UHGV virus genome: UHGV-0190812
DNA length: 18,962 bases
Direction: 5' to 3' (one strand)
From: a virus
Part shown: in pieces, positions 62-15,693 of the stretch
Numbering within the stretch: the stretch's first letter is position 1
Layout of the letters: each line of letters opens with the position of its first letter
The notes under the pieces: model-generated
Database searches by the model: none
What the model was told of the DNA's origin: nothing
Seen by the model: only the letters and a program-made list of their open reading frames with translations
Program-made: the position numbers and the translations under genes

Positions 62-592
62 ATGAGTTCTGTAATGAAATTTTCTGTTGTTAATGCAGTA
101 GTGCTGCTGTTGCTGATTGTACTTACTGGTGTTTTTTATATGAAAAAGTCAAAAGAAATTGCAGTTGTTAATATCGATACTATTTATAATCAGTCTACCG
201 CCGGAGACATGGCCAGAAAGCATCTGAATGAGGTTAAGAGTATTCTTGAAAAAGGATATGAGGATGCGCAAAAAGCATTCGCAGATAACGCGAATAAAGA
301 GGCGCTGCTTCTTGATGCCAGACAAAAACTGGAACGACAATATGTTATTGAGGAAAATAGCGCAAAAATGGTGTTATCCCGTGCGATAGATAATGCCATA
401 GGCACATGGAGAAAAGACAATCCTAAAAATATTGCCGTATTGTCTTCAGGTGTTGTGCTTGCGCATAACGAGTCAGCTGATATCACCAAAGAAGTCATGA
501 CTCTGGTTGAAAAAGAAAATCTGGTTTTTAATAAATTACCCAAAGTGGAAGTGCACAATAAGAATGAAGAGAAACCAGAACAAAGTAAGTAA
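62..592 (+). CDS. Skp/OmpH-like periplasmic chaperone family protein with N-terminal hydrophobic anchor
   Basis: 176-aa ORF. Hydrophobic N-terminus (VVNAVVLLLLIVLTGVF) followed by segments resembling E. coli Skp as recalled (IAVVNIDTIY vs IAIVNMGSLF; C-terminal AVLSSGVVLAHNESADITKEV vs [23 protein letters not shown]). Similarity judged by eye from memory, not searched. Confidence 0.55.
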   Translation: MSSVMKFSVVNAVVLLLLIVLTGVFYMKKSKEIAVVNIDTIYNQSTAGDMARKHLNEVKSILEKGYEDAQKAFADNANKEALLLDARQKLERQYVIEENSAKMVLSRAIDNAIGTWRKDNPKNIAVLSSGVVLAHNESADITKEVMTLVEKENLVFNKLPKVEVHNKNEEKPEQSK

Positions 593-1117
593 TCACTAGA
601 TTCTGACGATTTCCAGAAGGGAGATTCAGCAGGCCAGCATCTGTAATCATTCAGATTTGCTGGCTTGCTGCTAAATATGGTTGGTAAGAAAAATAGCAGG
701 CCAGTAATTTATTTAGATTACTGAATATAATAATTTTTCAGGAACGGTTATGCTGAAGGTAGTATGTTTAATCGACACAATTATTTGCTGTGTCTAATAT
801 GAGGTGACATTTTTATGATCACTGACCAGCAAGACTGACCCGTATTGATTAGCCTGATTATTGGCAACTTATTGGGGTAGTCATTTTGACATCCAATGGG
901 GGAGGTTTCCAGTTAAGTTCACGAATGCATGATGATTTGCGTTCACATATCGAAGTACTGGTTGACTATACTAAGGATTTTAAGATAACTCACTGATTGT
1001 AACTGGGTTATTGCGAGGGGGATGATAGATGGTGTCCCCTGCAGACATCTACTTGAAGCAGCAGGGGATTGATTGGAATGGTGTTTTTTAGATGTGAGAA
1101 ATATTTTACCCGCTATT

Positions 1118-1318
1118 TTACCCATTGGCGCGGCTTAAGAGCTTATTTTTGAATTCACAATGGTCACGATATAACCATCTTGCTCGCCCGTGGATAACTT
1201 TGGCTTTTGGCAGGTCGCCGGACTTAATCCGGTCATAGATGAAGGTTTTACCAAAGCCAGTATCAGCCATGATGAATTTCAAATCAACCAGTGAATCAGG
1301 CTGTAGTTCGTGTTGCAT
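1118..1318 (-). CDS. AlpA-family small DNA-binding protein (excisionase/regulator-like)
   Basis: 66-aa ORF; DLKFIMADTGFGKTFIYDRIKSGDLPKAKVIHGRARW is typical of the prophage AlpA/Xis-type helix-turn-helix family. GGAGA Shine-Dalgarno 8 nt upstream of the ATG. Confidence 0.7.
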   Translation of the reverse strand: MQHELQPDSLVDLKFIMADTGFGKTFIYDRIKSGDLPKAKVIHGRARWLYRDHCEFKNKLLSRANG

Positions 1319-1421
1319 GAGTGCTATCTCCGAATAGGGAATCGAACCTGCAAATCAGGTAATAAAAATACGCTCTATGACGGCGATGGTAGATCAGGAT
1401 ATTTTAAGAAACTGACAGGCC

Positions 1422-1700
1422 TCATCGAGTGTGAGGCTGTATGATTCCATGGTTACCTCTGCTTTTTGAACGCATGTCACGTAACTTCTTAATGTGTTCT
1501 GCCGTTTCGATCTCTTCTGCTATCCGATCTGCATCAGCTTTATTCACAGGTTCAAAGTCATGATTAAAGCGGAACATGCTGGCGATACATGTTCTGCCTT
1601 TTCGGATGTAGTGAACTTTGTTGTGGGTAGAACGCAGGATTTTGCAGGGAGTGCCGTGGTGGTCGACGTACCAGGTGTTAGGAAAAATGATTCTGAACAT
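1422..1700 (-). CDS. hypothetical phage early protein
   Basis: 92-aa ORF, co-oriented with the early-left operon; GAGGTG Shine-Dalgarno about 7 nt upstream of the ATG at 1700. No family recognised. Confidence 0.5.
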   Translation of the reverse strand: MFRIIFPNTWYVDHHGTPCKILRSTHNKVHYIRKGRTCIASMFRFNHDFEPVNKADADRIAEEIETAEHIKKLRDMRSKSRGNHGIIQPHTR

Positions 1701-1747
1701 TTTTACACCTCAGTTGGACGATGTTGAAATTTGCTGCTTTGAGGCCA

Positions 1748-1966
1748 TCACAGTCCCCATTGTTTGTTCTTAAGTTCGATCTCCTCCTGGCAACTTGCAC
1801 AAGTCCGACAACGCTGAACAGCCAGGCGTCTTCGCTCATCTATCGGATCGCCACACTCACAACAATGAGTTGCGGATACAGTCTGGTAGTTCTGACGACG
1901 CATTTTTATTGCTGTATTGCGCTGTAATTCTTCGATTTCTGATGCTGAATCAAAGATGTCTGCCAT
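1748..1966 (-). CDS. TraR/DksA-family C4 zinc-finger protein
   Basis: 72-aa ORF with CxxC-(17)-CxxC (CCECGDPIDERRRLAVQRCRTCASC), the usual spacing of phage/plasmid TraR-like proteins. Confidence 0.75.
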   Translation of the reverse strand: MADIFDSASEIEELQRNTAIKMRRQNYQTVSATHCCECGDPIDERRRLAVQRCRTCASCQEEIELKNKQWGL

Positions 1967-2064
1967 CTTCCATTAATCCCTGAATTGTTGGTTAATACGC
2001 TTGAGGATGAATGCGAACAATAAAAAAGGAGCCTGTAGCTCCCTGATGATTTTGCTTTTCATGT

Positions 2065-2280
2065 TCACCGTTCCTTAAAGACGCCGTTTAACATGCCGAT
2101 CGCCAGGCTTAAATGAGTCGGTGTGAATCCCATCAGCGTTACCGTTTCGCGGTGCTTCTTAAGTACGCTACGGCAAATGTCATCGACGTTTTTATCCGGA
2201 AACTGCTGTCTGGCTTTTTTGATTTCAGAATTAGCCTGACGGGCAATGCTGCGAAGGGCGTTTTCCTGCTGAGGTGTCAT
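2065..2280 (-). CDS. hypothetical small protein (start uncertain)
   Basis: ORF in the early-left operon; 71 aa from the ATG at 2280 (MTPQQENALRSIARQ...). In-frame upstream starts at 2346 (ATG) and 2379 (TTG) would overlap the end of the methylase gene. No family recognised. Confidence 0.45.
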   Translation of the reverse strand: MTPQQENALRSIARQANSEIKKARQQFPDKNVDDICRSVLKKHRETVTLMGFTPTHLSLAIGMLNGVFKER

Positions 2281-2356
2281 TGAACAAGTCCCATGTCGGC
2301 AAGCATAAGCACACAGAATATGAAGCCCGCTGCCAGAAAAATGCATTCCGTGGTTG

Positions 2357-2914
2357 TCATGCAGCCTCCCGACGGGCAAGAATCCTTGAGCCGAACGCCA
2401 TCAACTCTCCACGATCAACGGTCGTAAAGTGGCAGTGTGTACGGGGGTATGGGTGCCAGATAATGAGCATCGAGCCTTTATTATTTCCACTGACGGGTTT
2501 CTCAGTGAGTGGGTTAATAAATGCCAGTCGTCCTGCCGTGATGAATCTGACCTCACTGGCGGTTTGTATCGCTTCATGAAACCATCCGACAGATGTGTCA
2601 GCAGGCAATAACATTACACATCCCACACTACTGAATTTGTTTTCAGTGGCTGCCTTTTTCACAAAAGGGGAAATATTGCTGTATGGTGGATTCAACCAGA
2701 CATAACCAGAGGCATATCCCATTGCTTCAGGCCATGAAGTGGTTAATGTGTTCTGCTCCTGTGAGATAAAAAGCCGACATAGTCGGTTTTTTTCGCTGGC
2801 GGCAGCATCAAGTTGAAAAACGAACTCTGCATTAAGCGCAGCAAAAATCTCTGGTGGTGTGCGCCAGCTGTCGCGATGTTCGGCAGGAGTATTGCTTCCG
2901 GTGAAATCAGTCAT
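2357..2914 (-). CDS. phage-type DNA N6-adenine methyltransferase (Dam family)
   Basis: 185-aa ORF with WRTPPEIF, LDAAAS and NPPYS motifs characteristic of phage Dam-type MTases (motif I / motif IV DPPY-like). Confidence 0.85.
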   Translation of the reverse strand: MTDFTGSNTPAEHRDSWRTPPEIFAALNAEFVFQLDAAASEKNRLCRLFISQEQNTLTTSWPEAMGYASGYVWLNPPYSNISPFVKKAATENKFSSVGCVMLLPADTSVGWFHEAIQTASEVRFITAGRLAFINPLTEKPVSGNNKGSMLIIWHPYPRTHCHFTTVDRGELMAFGSRILARREAA

Positions 2915-3068
2915 ACAGCCCCCGTTTATTATTTATCGCCTCAGCCAGCCGCTGTGCTTTCAGTGGATTTCTGATAACAGAAAGGCCGGGAAATACCCAG
3001 CCTCGCTTTGTAACGGAGTAGATGAAAGTGATCGCGCCTACCCGGATATTATCGTGAGGATGCTTCAT
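2907..3068 (-). CDS. small hypothetical protein, translationally coupled between exo and the methylase gene
   Basis: 53-codon ORF below the ORF-track size cut-off. Its ATG overlaps the exo stop (ATGA) and its stop overlaps the methylase ATG (ATGACTGA), as read by hand from the sequence. Confidence 0.3.
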
Positions 3069-3745
3069 CGCCATTGCTCCCCAAATACAAAACCAATTTC
3101 AGCCAGTGCCACGTCCATTTTTTCGATGAACTCCGGCACCATCTCGTCAAAATTCGCCATGTACTTTTCATTCCGCTCAATCACGACATAATGCAGGCCT
3201 TCACGCTTCATACGCGGGTCATAGTTGGCAAAGTACCAGGCATCTTTTCGCGTCACCCACATGCTGTACTGCACCTGGGCCATGTAAGCCGATTTTATGG
3301 CCTCGAAACCACCGAGCCGGAACTTCATGAAATCCCGGGAGGTAAACGGGCATTTCAGTTCAAGGCCGTTGCCGTCACTGCATAAACCATCGGGAGAGCA
3401 GGCGGTGCGCATACTTTCGTCGCGATAGATGATCGGGGATTCAGTAACATTCACGCCGGAAGTGAATTCAAACAGGGTTCTGGCGTCGTTCTCGTACTGT
3501 TTTCCCCAGGCCAGCGCCTTAGCATTAACTTCCGGAGCCACACCGGTGCAAACCTCAGCCAGCAGGGTGTGGAAGTAGGACATTTTCATGTCAGGCCACT
3601 TCTTTCCTGAGCGGGGCTTTGCTATCACGTTGTGAACTTCTGAAGCGGTGATGACGCCGAGCCGTAATTTGTGCCATGCATCATCCCCCTGTTCGACAGC
3701 TCTCACGTCGATCCCGGTACGCTGCAGGATAATGTCCGGTATCAT
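3065..3745 (-). CDS. exo: Red-alpha 5'-3' exonuclease (lambda Exo)
   Basis: 226-aa translation is near-identical over its whole length to lambda Exo as recalled ([54 protein letters not shown]...). Stop/start overlap with bet. Confidence 0.95.
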
Positions 3746-5617: not shown

Positions 5618-6475
5618 TCAGCCTACTGTTCTAAAGATGAGAAGTGGTGTCATCCCATACGAATCACTTCCTCTACCAGCTTGTACCTTGACCATATCCA
5701 GGAAGGATTGTAATCCTGACTTGAGATCGTGTTCAGGGAAATCAGGGTTATTGATATTCTGATCTTGTACAGAATCTGGCAAGGCATCAATCAATCCAAT
5801 GACATGCCAGGTACCCGGTATGGTGCCACCATATTTTAAGGCTAAGTCATCAGGATTAATTGTTAAATATTCTTTATCAATAGACATCCACATCAGGTTG
5901 CCATTCTCATCAATAAAATCAACCTGGAGGATGTTGGGAACGATATTAATGAGTTTCTTAACTACACCAATGGTAAGCCCTGGAGATATCTCAATTTCAT
6001 CTGGGGTGAGTTTTCCTTTAAGCTTCGCTTTGGCTTTTGGGGGAAGGTTGACCGTGTTTAATTGTGCTTGGGCTATCTCACCAAAAATAGGCATAATTTT
6101 CTGAATAGTTGACACATCAAAAATGCGCATTTTTCCAACAGAATGAACAACTGAACCAAGATTCTCACCATTAAGTCCAGTTTTAATCATTCCTGCTTCA
6201 TCTAATTTATCGAGAAAATTAATTGGTAATGACCATGAAGCGTCGAAAGTTTTCTCTTGCGAATGTGTTAAGGTGTCGTCAGTCCCCACTTTTCCTTTAA
6301 GAATCTTGACGCTCAATTCAACGGATTTATTAGATTTATCTGTGTCAGAAGTAGTTTGTTTTACGCTCGTCACTACACCAGCATTGTGAAGCTGGGCTGT
6401 GAGGGAGCTAACGCGTACACGGTCTATGTAAAGAAAATCAAATAGTGAATCTGTGCTTTGTTGTTCGAGCTCCAT
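5618..6475 (-). CDS. hypothetical protein, 285 aa (304 aa if started at 6532); repressor-linked cargo, function unknown
   Basis: Long minus-strand ORF between the cI-like gene and pL. ATG at 6475 with AGAGAGGA about 8 nt upstream; alternative ATG at 6532. Appears AT-rich by eye relative to flanking modules. No motif I can assign (no kinase, nuclease, ATPase or TM signatures noted). Confidence 0.6.
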   Translation of the reverse strand: MELEQQSTDSLFDFLYIDRVRVSSLTAQLHNAGVVTSVKQTTSDTDKSNKSVELSVKILKGKVGTDDTLTHSQEKTFDASWSLPINFLDKLDEAGMIKTGLNGENLGSVVHSVGKMRIFDVSTIQKIMPIFGEIAQAQLNTVNLPPKAKAKLKGKLTPDEIEISPGLTIGVVKKLINIVPNILQVDFIDENGNLMWMSIDKEYLTINPDDLALKYGGTIPGTWHVIGLIDALPDSVQDQNINNPDFPEHDLKSGLQSFLDMVKVQAGRGSDSYGMTPLLIFRTVG

Positions 6476-6617
6476 TTTGCCAATCCTCTCTAAATTTTTC
6501 TTTTTCCTCGCGAATTCTTTTTTGCTTTTCATCTATCTCATCGAAAAGTTGAATGAGTTCATCCACACCATGTGAAGGCGTCTCTGATTTCACTTTCTTC
6601 AAAATTTTCTTGAACAT
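6438..6617 (-). CDS. small charged hypothetical protein (59 aa), possible partner of the downstream 285-aa protein
   Basis: First ATG of the 6438-6695 ORF (MFKKILKKVKSETPSHGVDELIQLFDEIDEKQKRIREEKEKFREDWQNGARTTKHRFTI). Overlaps the 5' end of the next gene in another frame. No convincing Shine-Dalgarno. Confidence 0.3.
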   Translation of the reverse strand: MFKKILKKVKSETPSHGVDELIQLFDEIDEKQKRIREEKEKFREDWQNGARTTKHRFTI

Positions 6618-10081: not shown

Positions 10082-10262
10082 CGGGCAAAGAAAGATTCTT
10101 CGTTACTTGAAGAAATACAGTGTTTATTGTTCTTTTGAGATGTTGCGAAAACAGGAATTACCACGGTAAACATTTTGTAGCTGACCCATGCATTGATGAA
10201 ATATTGTGGGTATTTAATAGAGCATAATTATCAAGTTGCGTAAGATGTGGAGTAATGGTATG

Positions 10263-10288
10263 GGCGGTGTTAGCACCGCCTTTAATTA
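10263..10288. terminator. hairpin between P and the 115-aa gene (possible weak terminator)
   Basis: GGCGGTG-TTAG-CACCGCC perfect 7-bp stem followed on the plus strand by TTTAATT; weak U-tract. Confidence 0.3.
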
Positions 10289-10633
10289 AAGCTCAGAAAG
10301 CTGTAATAATATTTTTTCTGGAGTGGTTTCGTTGGAAATGCTAAATAATACAGCACCTTTGACTGATTCATCTCTCATTTCAATTTCACATGAATTATGG
10401 TTGTATGAGATTGCATAATTTTTTAATGTTCTTTCGCTTTGCCACCACACCATATTTGCAAGACTTCCGTTATACGTTCTTATCTCGATTGATCCGGGCA
10501 GGGCTTTCCAGATAACACCTCCTAGCAATGTAAGAGCGGCTGCACCAACATTTTTTGCATGATGGTTAGAACGTTCCATTACCCCTTCAGCATAACGATG
10601 AAGAATCTCTATGTCAGTCGCTTTGATAGTCAT
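10286..10633 (-). CDS. hypothetical protein, 115 aa; reverse-oriented AT-rich moron in the ren slot
   Basis: ORF opposite in orientation to the flanking replication and nin genes, with visibly lower GC and an AT-rich upstream region (10634-10860) containing an extended -10-like TGCTATATT on the minus strand. No family recognised. Confidence 0.55.
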   Translation of the reverse strand: MTIKATDIEILHRYAEGVMERSNHHAKNVGAAALTLLGGVIWKALPGSIEIRTYNGSLANMVWWQSERTLKNYAISYNHNSCEIEMRDESVKGAVLFSISNETTPEKILLQLSEL

Positions 10634-10862
10634 GTTATTTCCATGTAATTGCTGTGTGAAACGTAGTGTTAGTTAGGTGTTAGCAGAATATAGCATCAAA
10701 GTCGAAACCGGTAGAAAAAATATTGGTGATTATTTCGCTGCATTTGGAACTGGAACAACAATGATTATTAGCATGATTGCTTTTTCCAGTCATAAGAATG
10801 AGTCGTGTTAATTTTTTCTATTCAATAGGAAATTATCATGTCATCAGAATATGAACAACTAT

Positions 10863-10960
10863 GGTGACTTCTGCGCTAAACGGGGACGTTTATGCGCACA
10901 TACAATCCAAACTCTCTTCTCCCTCCACAGATGCAGAAATACACCTGCGATTTTTTGCAT
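10863..10960. repeat. ~98-bp direct repeat, copy A (tR2-like terminator module upstream of the cassette)
   Basis: About 95% identical by eye to 13348-13446 (GGTGACTTCTGCGCTAAACGGGGACGTTTATGCGCACA...CACCTGCG-T(7)-GCAT); contains a short GC stem plus T-run. Confidence 0.8.
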
Positions 10961-11111
10961 TCGGTGTTTTTGGCAGCCAAGAACAGGGAGTCTCTGTTTG
11001 TCTGGCGGCTAAAGGTGATATGGAAATCGTGATGTCTTAGCCTAAAGTAGTTGCAACAGTTGGAGCGATTATGGTGGTAGTAGTGATCATCGCGCCCCCC
11101 ATATGCAAGGG

Positions 11112-11224
11112 TTGACGACATTATTTATCCGGCGCTATATTCTGTGCGTTGCCGCAAAATCGGCACACGGGATTGGCGTCCCGGAATACTACTCAACGCA
11201 TACCGCGTTAAGCGGTTTTTTTAT
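11112..11224 (+). promoter_or_regulatory. promoter plus ~75-nt structured leader ending in an intrinsic terminator (attenuator or small RNA) upstream of the Bro-N gene
   Basis: TTGACG (11112-11117), 18-nt spacer, TATATT (11136-11141). Downstream stem-loops TGCCG/CGGCA and CGGGA/TCCCG, then ACCGC-GTTAA-GCGGT followed by T(7) at about 11202-11222. Confidence 0.35.
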
Positions 11225-11378
11225 GCGCTAAGCACGGCTACGCCCAAATTATGGTGGGCTGTGTGAGGGCTTCTTCGGGAGCGCCGGGTTTGAGTAGCCG
11301 GTTACGCCAACCTTGCACAGTTCACCACCAGTCGATTGGCGTCGTTGGTGGTGATGGTTAACCTGATGAGGTGATACT

Positions 11379-11939
11379 ATGACTACTCAATTAGCATTCC
11401 ACAAAACGACGTTTACCCCAATTTGCCACAATAACAGAATTTGGCTTACTGCCACTGAAGTTGGTTTAGCTCTGGAATATGCGGACGATAAAGCAGTTCA
11501 GCGCATTTACTCTCGTCACTCAGATGAATTTACAGATATGATGACAAGGGTGGTCAAAGTGACCACCCCTCGTGGAATGCAGGAGTCTCGAGTATTTAGC
11601 CTTCGCGGAGCCCATTTGATCGCCATGTTTGCACGAACTCCTGTAGCCAAAGAGTTCCGCCGCTGGGTTCTGGATATTCTCGATCGAGAAGTTCAACAAT
11701 CCCCAATCATAAAACAATTCACTGATAACGAACTTTGCACACTTGCTTGGTTATGGCGAGCAGGGGATGTGATGTTAACCGCCTGCCAGAATGTTACTCC
11801 ACTTCTTCAGGTTGCGGAGCACCGCGAAGCTGGTCGCTTTACTTCTATCGGGCAAGAATATCCCCAGATACTACATAAGGCGCGCGAAATCCTTGCCAGA
11901 GAAACGGCACCATGTAAAACTCCAGCCTTGGCAGGATAA
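11379..11939 (+). CDS. Bro-N domain protein (putative antirepressor-like)
   Basis: 186-aa ORF. N-terminal FHKTTFTPICHNNRIWLTATEVGLALEY...IYSRHSDEF...VFSLRGAHLIAMFARTPVAKEFRRWVLDIL fits the Bro-N fold motif pattern of phage antirepressors. GAGGTGA Shine-Dalgarno. Confidence 0.7.
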   Translation: MTTQLAFHKTTFTPICHNNRIWLTATEVGLALEYADDKAVQRIYSRHSDEFTDMMTRVVKVTTPRGMQESRVFSLRGAHLIAMFARTPVAKEFRRWVLDILDREVQQSPIIKQFTDNELCTLAWLWRAGDVMLTACQNVTPLLQVAEHREAGRFTSIGQEYPQILHKAREILARETAPCKTPALAG

Positions 11940-12150
11940 TAAGTGGAGCAGGGTGTTGCCACATTTGCGTCAGGATAGATTGCAATAGTTTTACATATTA
12001 GGCGCTGAATGGATGCAATCAGATAGCGCACTGGGCGGCAATGATTAAGGCTTCAGATAAGCCAAGTAAGCACTGAAAAAGTTCAATGTAATCAAATTCT
12101 CTTTATGGTATTTTCGTTAGACATCTCATACGCTTAGATGGAAATTTGAA

Positions 12151-12351
12151 ATGATGTATTCAGTAACTTTCGATGAAACTGGACGAGTAGAAGATATTGA
12201 ACTAGAGCGTGAGGTTAGAGCCGGAGATAGACTCTCGCTTAATATTGATGGTCTTGATGGTATTTATATAGTCATGACTGTTAGCGGCCCTATCTATGAA
12301 AATGTTTGTGTGCCAATGAATATCCGGGTTCAAAAGTATTGGAAGCAATGA
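12151..12351 (+). CDS. hypothetical small protein (66 aa)
   Basis: ORF within the repeat-flanked cassette, followed directly by a hairpin terminator. Weak Shine-Dalgarno; no family recognised. Confidence 0.3.
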   Translation: MMYSVTFDETGRVEDIELEREVRAGDRLSLNIDGLDGIYIVMTVSGPIYENVCVPMNIRVQKYWKQ

Positions 12352-12356
12352 TGTAT

Positions 12357-12385
12357 AATCCCCTCAGATGATCGAGGGGATTTTT
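12357..12385 (+). terminator. intrinsic terminator hairpin whose 3' arm contains the Shine-Dalgarno of the next ORF
   Basis: ATCCCCTC-AGATGAT-GAGGGGAT stem (8 bp) followed by TTTTT, then the ATG at 12386; the GAGGGGA in the 3' arm is the only Shine-Dalgarno for that ORF. Confidence 0.45.
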
Positions 12386-12559
12386 ATGTCAGATTGGAAC
12401 ATTGCAGCAAAACCGCAAGAGGAACGTGACAATGTTAACTTTGACCTTGCTGCGTCTGGTGTTGCATATAAAGAACGCTCCAAAATTCTCGTCATAGCCG
12501 AAGTGGTGATGTGCCAGCAACCAGAGCATCTTTGTGATTACTTCATGGAGCGCGTCTGA
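12386..12559 (+). CDS. hypothetical small protein (57 aa)
   Basis: ATG at 12386 with GAGGGGA 5 nt upstream; the track ORF starts 18 nt earlier at 12368. No family recognised. Confidence 0.35.
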   Translation: MSDWNIAAKPQEERDNVNFDLAASGVAYKERSKILVIAEVVMCQQPEHLCDYFMERV

Positions 12560-12631
12560 CTTCTCCATTGAGCATAGCATCACCCAGCCTAAAACATCTG
12601 ACCCTAGATATATGAAACAGGAGGAAGATAA

Positions 12632-13264
12632 ATGAAATTCTCTCGAATTGAACAAAGCCCAACAACGGATGAGGGTAATTACGTGAAAATCGATCATGAC
12701 TTTGGCTATTTTCTAGATCCTAATAAAATGGCCTCGATAGCTAACTATGAGGATGAGTCTGCCGCGCTATTAAAATTGATGCTAATTCATGAGGACTTTC
12801 TTCGGGTTGTTATTGAAAACTTACGACCTGATGGCTCTGAAAAATACAATTCGATAAGAAGCTATAAGTATTTTGCGTCAAAGCTGTCTGCCGCAGTTCT
12901 GTTAGGGCTTCCTGTCTCGCTTGCAGACGCTATGGCTGAGCTCAACACAATACGTAACAAGTACGCTCATAAAATTGAATATGTAATTACAAATGAAGAG
13001 GTTGATAAACTCGCAGAATCGATTAAAAACATAAAGTTAGAAGAGATTAACCATGGTGGCTACGTGCATCAAGTTGTTGAGCCAATTCTCAAGGATGGAA
13101 TCTACGCTATAGCGTTGATGAAAGAGCTACCTCCTGATCTTGAAGAAAATCGCATTCGTATTTGTAAGTTAGTCACTAGCGCGCATTGTATGTGTTTGCT
13201 CGGGGCCTTCTGGTTAATTAACACTCTGCACGTAAAGGGTAAGCTCAAGCTTTCCAAGGCCTGA
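12632..13264 (+). CDS. hypothetical protein (210 aa) with HEPN-like Rx4H motif; candidate abortive-infection or toxin RNase
   Basis: Strong AGGAGG Shine-Dalgarno. Markedly AT-rich by eye. Contains ELNTIRNKYAHK (R-x4-H in an RN..AH context, as in HEPN families such as Abi_2 or DUF4145). The assignment is inference from this one motif. Confidence 0.6.
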   Translation: MKFSRIEQSPTTDEGNYVKIDHDFGYFLDPNKMASIANYEDESAALLKLMLIHEDFLRVVIENLRPDGSEKYNSIRSYKYFASKLSAAVLLGLPVSLADAMAELNTIRNKYAHKIEYVITNEEVDKLAESIKNIKLEEINHGGYVHQVVEPILKDGIYAIALMKELPPDLEENRIRICKLVTSAHCMCLLGAFWLINTLHVKGKLKLSKA

Positions 13265-13347
13265 GTAGATCAATCGTATCATTTTCGCAAAATTGATTCT
13301 CCGTAATCAATTCGCCATAATTGTATCACCGGAGCCTGAACAACTTC

Positions 13348-13446
13348 GGTGACTTCTGCGCTAAACGGGGACGTTTATGCGCACACACAATCCAAACTCT
13401 CTTCTCCCTTCACAGATGCAGAAATGCACCTGCGTTTTTTTGCATC
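13348..13446. repeat. ~98-bp direct repeat, copy B (tR2-like module immediately upstream of ninB)
   Basis: Near-identical to 10863-10960 with about five mismatches. Confidence 0.8.
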
Positions 13447-14878: not shown

Positions 14879-15564
14879 ATACCCAATATTTACAGTATGT
14901 CCGCGAGCAACTCATTGTGGCTACTGCTGATTTGAGCGGAGCAACGAAAGGCCAGCTTGAAGCCTGGCTGGAGCATGCACAATTTGATACTGGTACATAT
15001 AAACGAAAGAAGCCGCGCATTCTGGATGAGGTAACGGGCAAGATGATTACGCTGGATAATCCGCCGATTTCCGGTAAGCAGTCGTACGCAAAAGGTTCAT
15101 CCATTGCACTGGTCAGCCAGGTTGAGTTCTCAACATCTTCATGGCGCCGCGCGGTTCTGTCTCTCGAAGAACATCAGAAAGCGTGGTTGCTGTGGAGTTA
15201 CAGTGAAAACATCAGCTTTGAATACCAGGTGGCGATCACCCAGTGGGCGTGGTCTGAATTCAGGGGGTATCTCGGCGCGAAGAGGGTGGCAGGCAAGACC
15301 ATGGAGCGCCTGAAGAAGCTGATATGGCTGGCAGCGCAGGATGTCAAAGCAGGGTTGGTCGGGAAAGATGCCTACGAATACCAGAAGCTGGCGGAACTGG
15401 TTGGCGTGGCGAAATCCACCTGGACAGAGACATACCTGCCTCACTGGTTGGCAATGCGTAGCTGCTTTATGCGACTCGATAGCGGTGCGCTTATCTCAGT
15501 AACGCGATCACGTTCACAACAAAAGGCGACAAGTTCGCACGTAAGTCTTGCAAAACCGAACTGA
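14875..15564 (+). CDS. late-gene antiterminator Q (QuuD-like)
   Basis: 229-aa ORF directly after rusA-ylcG, upstream of a candidate late promoter and the lysis cassette. Assignment by synteny and length; no motif independently verified. Confidence 0.6.
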   Translation: MNTQYLQYVREQLIVATADLSGATKGQLEAWLEHAQFDTGTYKRKKPRILDEVTGKMITLDNPPISGKQSYAKGSSIALVSQVEFSTSSWRRAVLSLEEHQKAWLLWSYSENISFEYQVAITQWAWSEFRGYLGAKRVAGKTMERLKKLIWLAAQDVKAGLVGKDAYEYQKLAELVGVAKSTWTETYLPHWLAMRSCFMRLDSGALISVTRSRSQQKATSSHVSLAKPN

Positions 15565-15693
15565 AACGCTTATATTTCATGTAAATCTGATATCGTCGCC
15601 ATAGCTTTGTTGGTCGACAAAGAATTAACAGCCTCGCCATCGTGCGGGGCTTTTACTTTACATGCTGTGAACACAAAAAAAGTAACTTTTATG

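Follow-up and report, generated by a model that had tools for sequence, protein, structure and literature searches.

Organization of the locus

The window, that is, the whole 18,962-nucleotide stretch of DNA that was analysed, covers the early and middle regions of an E. coli-type lambdoid prophage. It carries, in order, a Dam-like methyltransferase gene, exo, bet, gam and kil, a DUF6414 gene, a cI-like repressor gene and a cro-like gene. These are followed by ydaT, O and P, a variable island, ybcN/ninB, ninE, ybcO and rusA, Q, the lysis genes and an HNH endonuclease gene. The gene under study, whose product is named hypothetical protein in RefSeq, is found at the right-hand margin of that island. 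The features around and within it are the following:

10092–13291, no strand: variable accessory island, from the replication gene P to the nin genes, bounded by blastn breaks
12151–12351, plus strand: 66-aa ORF (phrog_38858), a variable neighbour and not a conserved partner
12357–12382, plus strand: GC hairpin with a T run after it, resembling a terminator and separating the 66-aa ORF from the theta gene (pattern match only)
12386–12635, plus strand: frameshifted gene for DNA polymerase III theta (HolE/HOT-like; Pfam DNA_pol3_theta, 6e-20)
12619–12624, plus strand: Shine-Dalgarno sequence AGGAGG, 6/6 match, 7-nt spacer to the ATG
12632–13264, plus strand: HepS-like gene, 210 aa plus stop
12632–12694, plus strand: N-terminal segment, aa 1–21, the counterpart of the N-terminal strand region that binds the trigger in HepS
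12953–12970, plus strand: codons of R108-N109-K-Y-A-H113, the HEPN R-x4-H catalytic motif, corresponding to HepS R100, N101 and H105
13238–13261, plus strand: C-terminal segment, aa 203–210, corresponding to the trigger-binding C-terminal strand of HepS
13414–13437, plus strand: terminator-like hairpin followed by a T run, 3′ of the HepS-like gene and before ybcN/ninB (pattern match only)

The 210-aa ORF is real and starts with ATG, as the preliminary description of this DNA had stated. Its ribosome-binding site, presented there as the strongest of the cassette, is indeed the best placed among the neighbouring genes, the only other 6/6 match being that of ninE, with a 4-nt spacer. The AGGAGG is contained in the ancestral reading frame of theta, at its 3′ end, and the segment is kept in the copies of the gene found in Enterobacter and in SCU-113-type prophages. 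The statement on base composition held in part: the ORF is AT-rich (GC content of 0.404 vs 0.467 for the window) but it is not the lowest in the window, as four ORFs lie below it, at 62–592 (0.373), 10286–10633 (0.382), 12151–12351 (0.388) and 5618–6532 (0.393). A simple promoter scan of 12383–12631 gave no promoter-like (sigma-70) site directly upstream of the gene; during lytic growth it would be transcribed from pR under antitermination. The two terminator-like hairpins (12357–12382 and 13414–13437) flank the theta and HepS-like genes and recall the nin-region terminators that lambda passes by antitermination.

The limits of the island were defined by comparison with the prophage of E. coli strain EC21Z-137 (L021), where the blastn match to the window ends at 10091 and restarts at 13292. 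The P-to-nin interval is a swap site between prophages. This near-isogenic prophage carries at the interval (L021, 9198–11351) a lone gene on the minus strand, encoding a 472-aa hypothetical protein, which stands in place of a Bro/P22AR-like gene, the 66-aa ORF, theta and the HepS-like gene. Also within the island of the window, at 10286–10633 on the minus strand, is a 115-aa ORF (GC 0.38) that matches the integron cassette protein family VCH_CASS14 in Pfam (5.6e-20).

Several other genes of the window deserve mention. The ORF at 62–592 (plus strand), at the left end, encodes 176 aa, has the GC minimum of the window (0.37) and gives sub-threshold Pfam matches to OmpH-like and DUF1993. The gene at 2357–2914 (minus strand), upstream of exo, encodes an N6-adenine methyltransferase of the phage Dam-like, orphan type (Pfam Dam, 2e-56; PADLOC orphan MTase). 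A 304-aa DUF6414 protein is encoded at 5618–6532 (minus strand; GC 0.39), between kil and the cI-like repressor, and has no PADLOC match. In sister prophages the same slot holds DUF7946/DUF7947, HipA_2 with DUF3037, DUF6932, SIR2 or DUF3800, and it seems to be a second hotspot for defence genes or morons.

The window protein belongs to the HepS family

The preliminary description had proposed a HEPN ribonuclease on the basis of an R-x4-H motif. The peptide in question, ELNTIRNKYAHK, is present in the protein and holds its sole R-x4-H (R108…H113). Since 0.23 such matches are expected by chance in a protein of this composition, the motif on its own is weak evidence. In Pfam, where membership was judged by the gathering threshold of each family, nothing scored above threshold, and the sub-threshold matches all belong to the HEPN clan: DUF4145 (E 0.011, 16.2 bits vs a cutoff of 23.1), RiboL-PSP-HEPN (E 0.038, 14.3 bits vs 28.4) and Swt1-HEPN (E 0.05, 14.3 bits vs 27.5). 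Abi_2 did not match the window protein, and the relatives of the window protein reached Pfam families with a best E of 2.5e-4. The specific assignment to Abi_2 or DUF4145 was therefore dropped. PADLOC returned Csm6 at 0.011, below threshold, and NCBIfam an irrelevant match to MPN121 alone, with none at threshold. In PHROGs, there is a strong match to phrog_5712, a family without known function.

The placement came from larger searches. A search of 5.8 billion proteins yielded 16 clusters in two groups, one from E. coli, Citrobacter, Enterobacter and Klebsiella, with 75–100% identity to the window protein, and the other from Salmonella, with about 51% identity. The profile of these clusters, compared with the PDB, matched entries 9oij and 9oik, which correspond to HepS, with an E of 4e-105 over residues 1–210. 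Independently, the family profile reached the HEPN domain of Csm6′ (E 3e-4). The lack of any HEPN-like fold in profile or structure searches had been named in advance as an outcome that would count against the proposal, and this outcome did not occur. BLASTP against Salmonella HepS gave 51% identity over 208 aa (E 2e-74), the numbering of the HepS sequence used agreeing with every residue named in the published work (PMC13043305). Among 1.84 billion representatives, an exhaustive HMMER search recovered 120 relatives at E < 1e-3, mainly stand-alone proteins of 160–220 aa, in agreement with the 393 HepS homologues reported (PMC13043305). The window protein is thus a member of the HepS family and not a new type of system; with the sequences from E. 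coli, Citrobacter, Enterobacter and Klebsiella it forms a separate clade.

HepS is the product of STM14_3211, in the prophage Gifsy-1 of Salmonella Typhimurium 14028 (PDB 9oij and 9oik; Sargen et al., Nature 2026, PMC13043305), for which a HEPN domain had been predicted in an earlier paper (PMC9879122). It is described as a self-sufficient "HEPN solo" abortive-infection protein, expressed constitutively, whose gene has its own promoter and no co-occurring partner gene, and whose overexpression is non-toxic (PMC13043305). At rest it forms an inactive tetramer that keeps R100 and H105 buried; its activator is the siphovirus tail-tip protein J, of which residues 902–933 of the lambda protein are enough, F924 being critical (PMC13043305). 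J docks on a composite β-sheet formed by the N- and C-terminal segments of HepS, and the change is passed to the active site by Y20 and I107 (PMC13043305). Activity needs R100 and H105, as well as each of the tetramer-interface residues F66, K78 and L83, and the active enzyme cleaves the anticodon loops of tRNA-Thr(GGT) and of a few other tRNAs (tRNA-Ile/Ser) (PMC13043305). The phages Gifsy-1, Gifsy-2 and Gifsy-3 escape HepS, as their J has I for F, and changing this I to F in the J of Gifsy-1 nearly abolishes its own particle production (PMC13043305).

Predicted structure and residue conservation

The structure of the window protein was predicted with AlphaFold2. With a 60-sequence alignment the model reached a pLDDT of 88.5 and a pTM of 0.85, whereas a shallow alignment of 11 sequences gave a pLDDT of 60.8. 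The model superposes on the HepS crystal structure and next on other HEPN domains, in agreement with Foldseek; the structural check proposed at the outset therefore points to the HepS/HEPN fold. As in the HEPN superfamily at large, the predicted fold is all-α, with the R-x4-6-H motif on the catalytic helix. Residues 1–11 are disordered in the model, and the strand 18–20 pairs with the strand 207–209, the same pairing of N- and C-terminal strands from which the trigger site of HepS is made.

The residues assigned a role in HepS have the following equivalents in the window protein:

HepS R100, N101 and H105 (catalytic; N101 also tRNA contact): R108, N109 and H113, conserved
HepS Y20 and I107 (allosteric relay): Y26 and I115, conserved
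HepS K71 (tRNA contact): K79, conserved
HepS L83 (tetramer interface): L91, conserved
HepS F66 (tetramer interface): Y72, conservative change
HepS K78 (tetramer interface; K78A inactivates HepS): S86, changed
HepS D15 (trigger bonding): D21, conserved
HepS S13, S202 and T203 (trigger bonding): K19, K209 and A210, changed

E54, R108, N109 and H113 are invariant in 60 relatives, with identity down to about 20%, and Y26 and I115 are invariant in the close alignment of 11 sequences. The regions expected to contact the trigger have another pattern. Three of the four trigger-bonding residues differ from HepS and D alone is retained; a 6-aa insertion, DEGNYV, separates the conserved MKFSRIEQS start from the IDH motif, and at the C-terminus HepS extends seven residues further. 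Common to both proteins in this sensor region are the first nine residues (MKFSRIEQS vs MKYSRVEQS), the IDH motif and the C-terminal GKLK. Judging from the aligned residues, the catalytic engine and the relay are conserved, and the sensor surface has diverged, possibly together with the oligomer interface. Because of S86, of K19, K209 and A210, of the insertion and of the shorter C-terminus, both the oligomeric state and the trigger may differ from those of HepS. The divergence of the sensor strands concerns trigger specificity, not homology.

In addition, the gene is under strong purifying selection. The dN/dS ratio is 0.05 against an Enterobacter allele; for more distant alleles synonymous sites are saturated, and pN is 0.06–0.10 inside the clade.

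A single-gene cassette in lambdoid prophages

Two small ORFs precede the gene, of 66 aa (12151–12351) and 57 aa (12386–12559), as described earlier, where they were put forward as candidate antitoxins. Frame analysis and alignment to the intact 82-aa gene of Enterobacter prophages indicate that the second of them is the 5′ part of a frameshifted theta gene and not an independent small gene. Frame 0 ends at 12559 after 57 aa, the conserved C-terminus lies in the +1 frame, and the TGA of that frame overlaps the ATG of the HepS-like gene (ATGA). In the Enterobacter prophages the intact theta gene shows a 4-nt overlap with the HepS-like start codon, and the E. coli copies of theta are marked "frameshifted" in RefSeq. 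Theta is the ancestral upstream neighbour of the HepS clade of the window.

Neither neighbour is constant. The 66-aa ORF is absent from the SCU-113-type and Enterobacter contexts, and in the SCU-113-type prophages it has been replaced together with the 5′ part of theta, these prophages matching the window solely from 12544 onwards, 88 nt upstream of the ATG. The neighbours of Salmonella hepS are unrelated, encoding a dATP/dGTP pyrophosphohydrolase and DinI. No MNT nucleotidyltransferase gene was found next to the HepS-like gene, which is flanked by the theta homologue, phrog_38858 and, downstream, ybcN/NinB. The DNA common to different prophage backbones extends from 88 nt before the ATG to 27 nt past the stop codon; the HepS-like gene moves between lambdoid prophage backbones as a single-gene cassette of roughly 750 bp. 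At 210 aa, prophage-encoded and with no conserved partner, its product has the attributes by which the HepS family is delimited (<250 aa, prophage-encoded, no conserved partner).

Regarding its distribution, the exact protein is recorded in 323 assembly blocks. The gene is rare, being present in 18 of 5,426 complete E. coli genomes, always chromosomal and in single copy, and the ORF is at least 99% identical across these 18 genomes. A tblastn search of 50,697 phage records gave no match to the HepS-like gene, and the GTDB species representatives (about 185,000 genomes) gave one, on a 4.4-kb contig of an Enterobacter MAG. The carrier prophages have at least three different late-gene modules and differing immunity regions. 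Near-identical copies in at least three prophage backbones and at several chromosomal sites imply continued exchange. An Enterobacter prophage that carries a HepS-like gene (L017) encodes, at 14909–15592, a separate 227-aa DUF4145 (HEPN-clan) protein between its lysis and terminase genes.

The trigger peptide of J in the carrier prophages

The window stops at the HNH/terminase region, before the tail genes, and J was therefore read from sister E. coli prophages with the same allele. The non-triggering J of a HepS host, with I for lambda F924, was found in none of the nine carrier prophages checked: F is kept at this position in all nine. In eight of them (strains SCU-113, S1-KEN-03-A, JCKP02, 20KM0223N, A2, YA-1, ij001 and MEI1A-0323) the 32-aa equivalent of lambda J 902–933 is identical to that of lambda, and in strain 95-3322 the peptide has nine substitutions with the F still there. 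Several of the F924-bearing carrier prophages look intact. Damage is seen in others, in the form of a capsid gene interrupted by an inserted element, a stop codon within the protease gene or, in JX2, truncation of the prophage.

The element found within the major capsid gene of lambda-like carrier prophages is about 10.5 kb long (L008, 3937–14204, in strain 95-3322; L011, about 21000–31650, in S1-KEN-03-A; and L024, in MB06231). Its genes encode an integrase, an Icd-like protein, a primase, an SSB, a major capsid protein, a head decoration protein and a small terminase. The element resembles a capsid-forming phage satellite that has inserted into the capsid gene of its helper and thereby disrupted it.

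If the lambda-type peptide activated the window protein as it does Salmonella HepS, these carriers would abort their own lytic cycle. The most likely explanation, given the changes in the sensor strands, is that this clade has a different or re-tuned trigger. It is also possible that the prophage supplies an inhibitor, or that the carrier prophages are effectively locked in. An inactive protein is disfavoured by the conservation of the gene and the selection acting on it.

Discussion

We consider it probable (about 0.8) that the ORF encodes a HepS-family "solo" HEPN ribonuclease, i.e. an abortive-infection defence made up of one gene, which the lambdoid prophage carries as a moron in its P-to-nin slot. 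The homology to HepS over the full length, a model that superposes on HEPN structures and an R-N-x3-H motif that is invariant in the family all favour the HEPN-type ribonuclease and abortive-infection function proposed in the preliminary description. By homology with HepS we infer the RNase activity, the tRNA targets, the oligomeric state and the defence phenotype of the window protein. In the resting state it would be an inactive oligomer with buried R-x4-H sites. A late phage protein would then bind the N- and C-terminal segments, zipping both into a small β-sheet, and the Y26 and I115 relay would realign R108 and H113 of paired protomers. The sites thus opened would cleave the anticodon loops of particular tRNAs, halting translation and the production of phage particles in the infected cell. 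No antitoxin would be involved in this mechanism.

The shared catalytic core could also belong to a HEPN-fold protein that has become catalytically silent or been repurposed, for example as an MtlR/YggD-like regulator, and that acts neither as a nuclease nor in defence. Such a protein would not be expected to keep R-N-x3-H invariant in 60 relatives or to be under strong purifying selection; the window protein is moreover 51% identical to a proven nuclease, retains all the catalytic and relay residues tested in it and is encoded at a location typical of defence morons, all of which makes a silent protein highly improbable. The least probable reading is that of a toxin whose antitoxin is encoded by one of the two small upstream ORFs. 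HEPN toxins do commonly have small antitoxin partners, and the 4-nt overlap between theta and the start codon in Enterobacter suggests translational coupling. Against this, the 57-aa ORF belongs to a theta homologue that is frameshifted while the nuclease is intact, both upstream ORFs are replaced in SCU-113-type prophages, the genes next to Salmonella hepS are of other kinds and no MNT-type nucleotidyltransferase is nearby. A neighbour that is broken or swapped beside a nuclease at least 99% identical in 18 genomes is not an essential antitoxin. HepS itself is partnerless and non-toxic on overexpression, and the toxin–antitoxin reading, with the small ORFs as antitoxins, was rejected on these grounds.

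It is harder to dismiss that the protein works exactly like Salmonella HepS, its response to the lambda-type J peptide around F924 included, and that the carriers either restrict themselves, being locked in and passed on vertically, or are shielded by an inhibitor or an expression threshold. The conserved catalytic, relay and tRNA-contact residues are in line with such a protein, as are the MKFSRIEQS/MKYSRVEQS start, IDH and GKLK shared in the sensor region, and some carrier prophages are visibly damaged. We nevertheless regard it as rather unlikely: the peptide equals lambda J 902–933 in eight of nine carriers, several of them intact-looking, the presence of the gene in at least three backbones and at several chromosomal sites implies continued exchange, and three of the four trigger-bonding residues are changed. 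Instead, the E. coli/Enterobacter HepS clade, with its remodelled sensor strands, may have another trigger specificity than Salmonella HepS, or another mechanism of self-tolerance, a proposal that we see as about evenly poised. Either would account for lambda-like host prophages that carry the exact lambda J peptide, F924 included.

Among known systems, HepS of Gifsy-1 is the closest. Both proteins have 210 aa and are 51% identical end to end, with the same R-N-x3-H site, the Y and I relay and the tRNA-contact K and N, and both are partnerless single-gene units in a lambdoid accessory slot between the replication and the nin/antitermination genes. The clade of the window differs in being about 51% identical to HepS and 75–100% identical among its own members, in having theta as ancestral upstream neighbour, and in the J of its carriers, with F in the E. 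coli prophages at the trigger position where the Gifsy phages have I. Tha is likewise a prophage-borne HEPN RNase defence turned on by a phage tail structural protein, but it is described as an unrelated system: its RNase is non-specific and responds to another tail trigger, and the prophage that carries Tha represses it during its own replication (PMC13043305). The HEPN toxins of HEPN-MNT systems (HepT-MntA; SO_3166, PDB 5yep, 7ae2 and 8xdj) are minimal domains of about 130 aa that an adjacent MNT nucleotidyltransferase neutralises, either by AMPylation or by forming a complex, whereas the window protein is larger, has N- and C-terminal sensor strands and has no MNT gene nearby. The HEPN proteins Csm6/Csx1 of type III CRISPR systems are also activated allosterically by a ligand that binds at a distance from the active site; there the activator is cyclic oligoadenylate and a CARF domain is fused, while the window protein has no CARF domain and its activator is presumed to be a phage protein. 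Finally, PrrC, RloC and RemN (of the RemAIN system of Gifsy-1) also cause abortive infection by cutting tRNA anticodon loops when a phage attacks, but work with partner proteins (EcoprrI, an ATPase or an immunity protein), in contrast to the solo HepS type.

The link to HepS gives an unnamed gene a concrete hypothesis of function, namely phage-triggered tRNA cleavage. According to the published HepS model, a carrier prophage must mutate the trigger residue of its own tail tip, and the E. coli carriers do not. Because they keep F924, the clade constitutes a natural experiment on how HepS trigger specificity is encoded and on how prophages avoid autoimmunity. The clash between the published rule of self-tolerance and the J sequences of the carriers makes the trigger specificity of the family directly testable. 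If the clade does have another trigger specificity or means of self-tolerance, HepS would be a re-targetable sensor-nuclease scaffold whose specificity resides in two short terminal segments.
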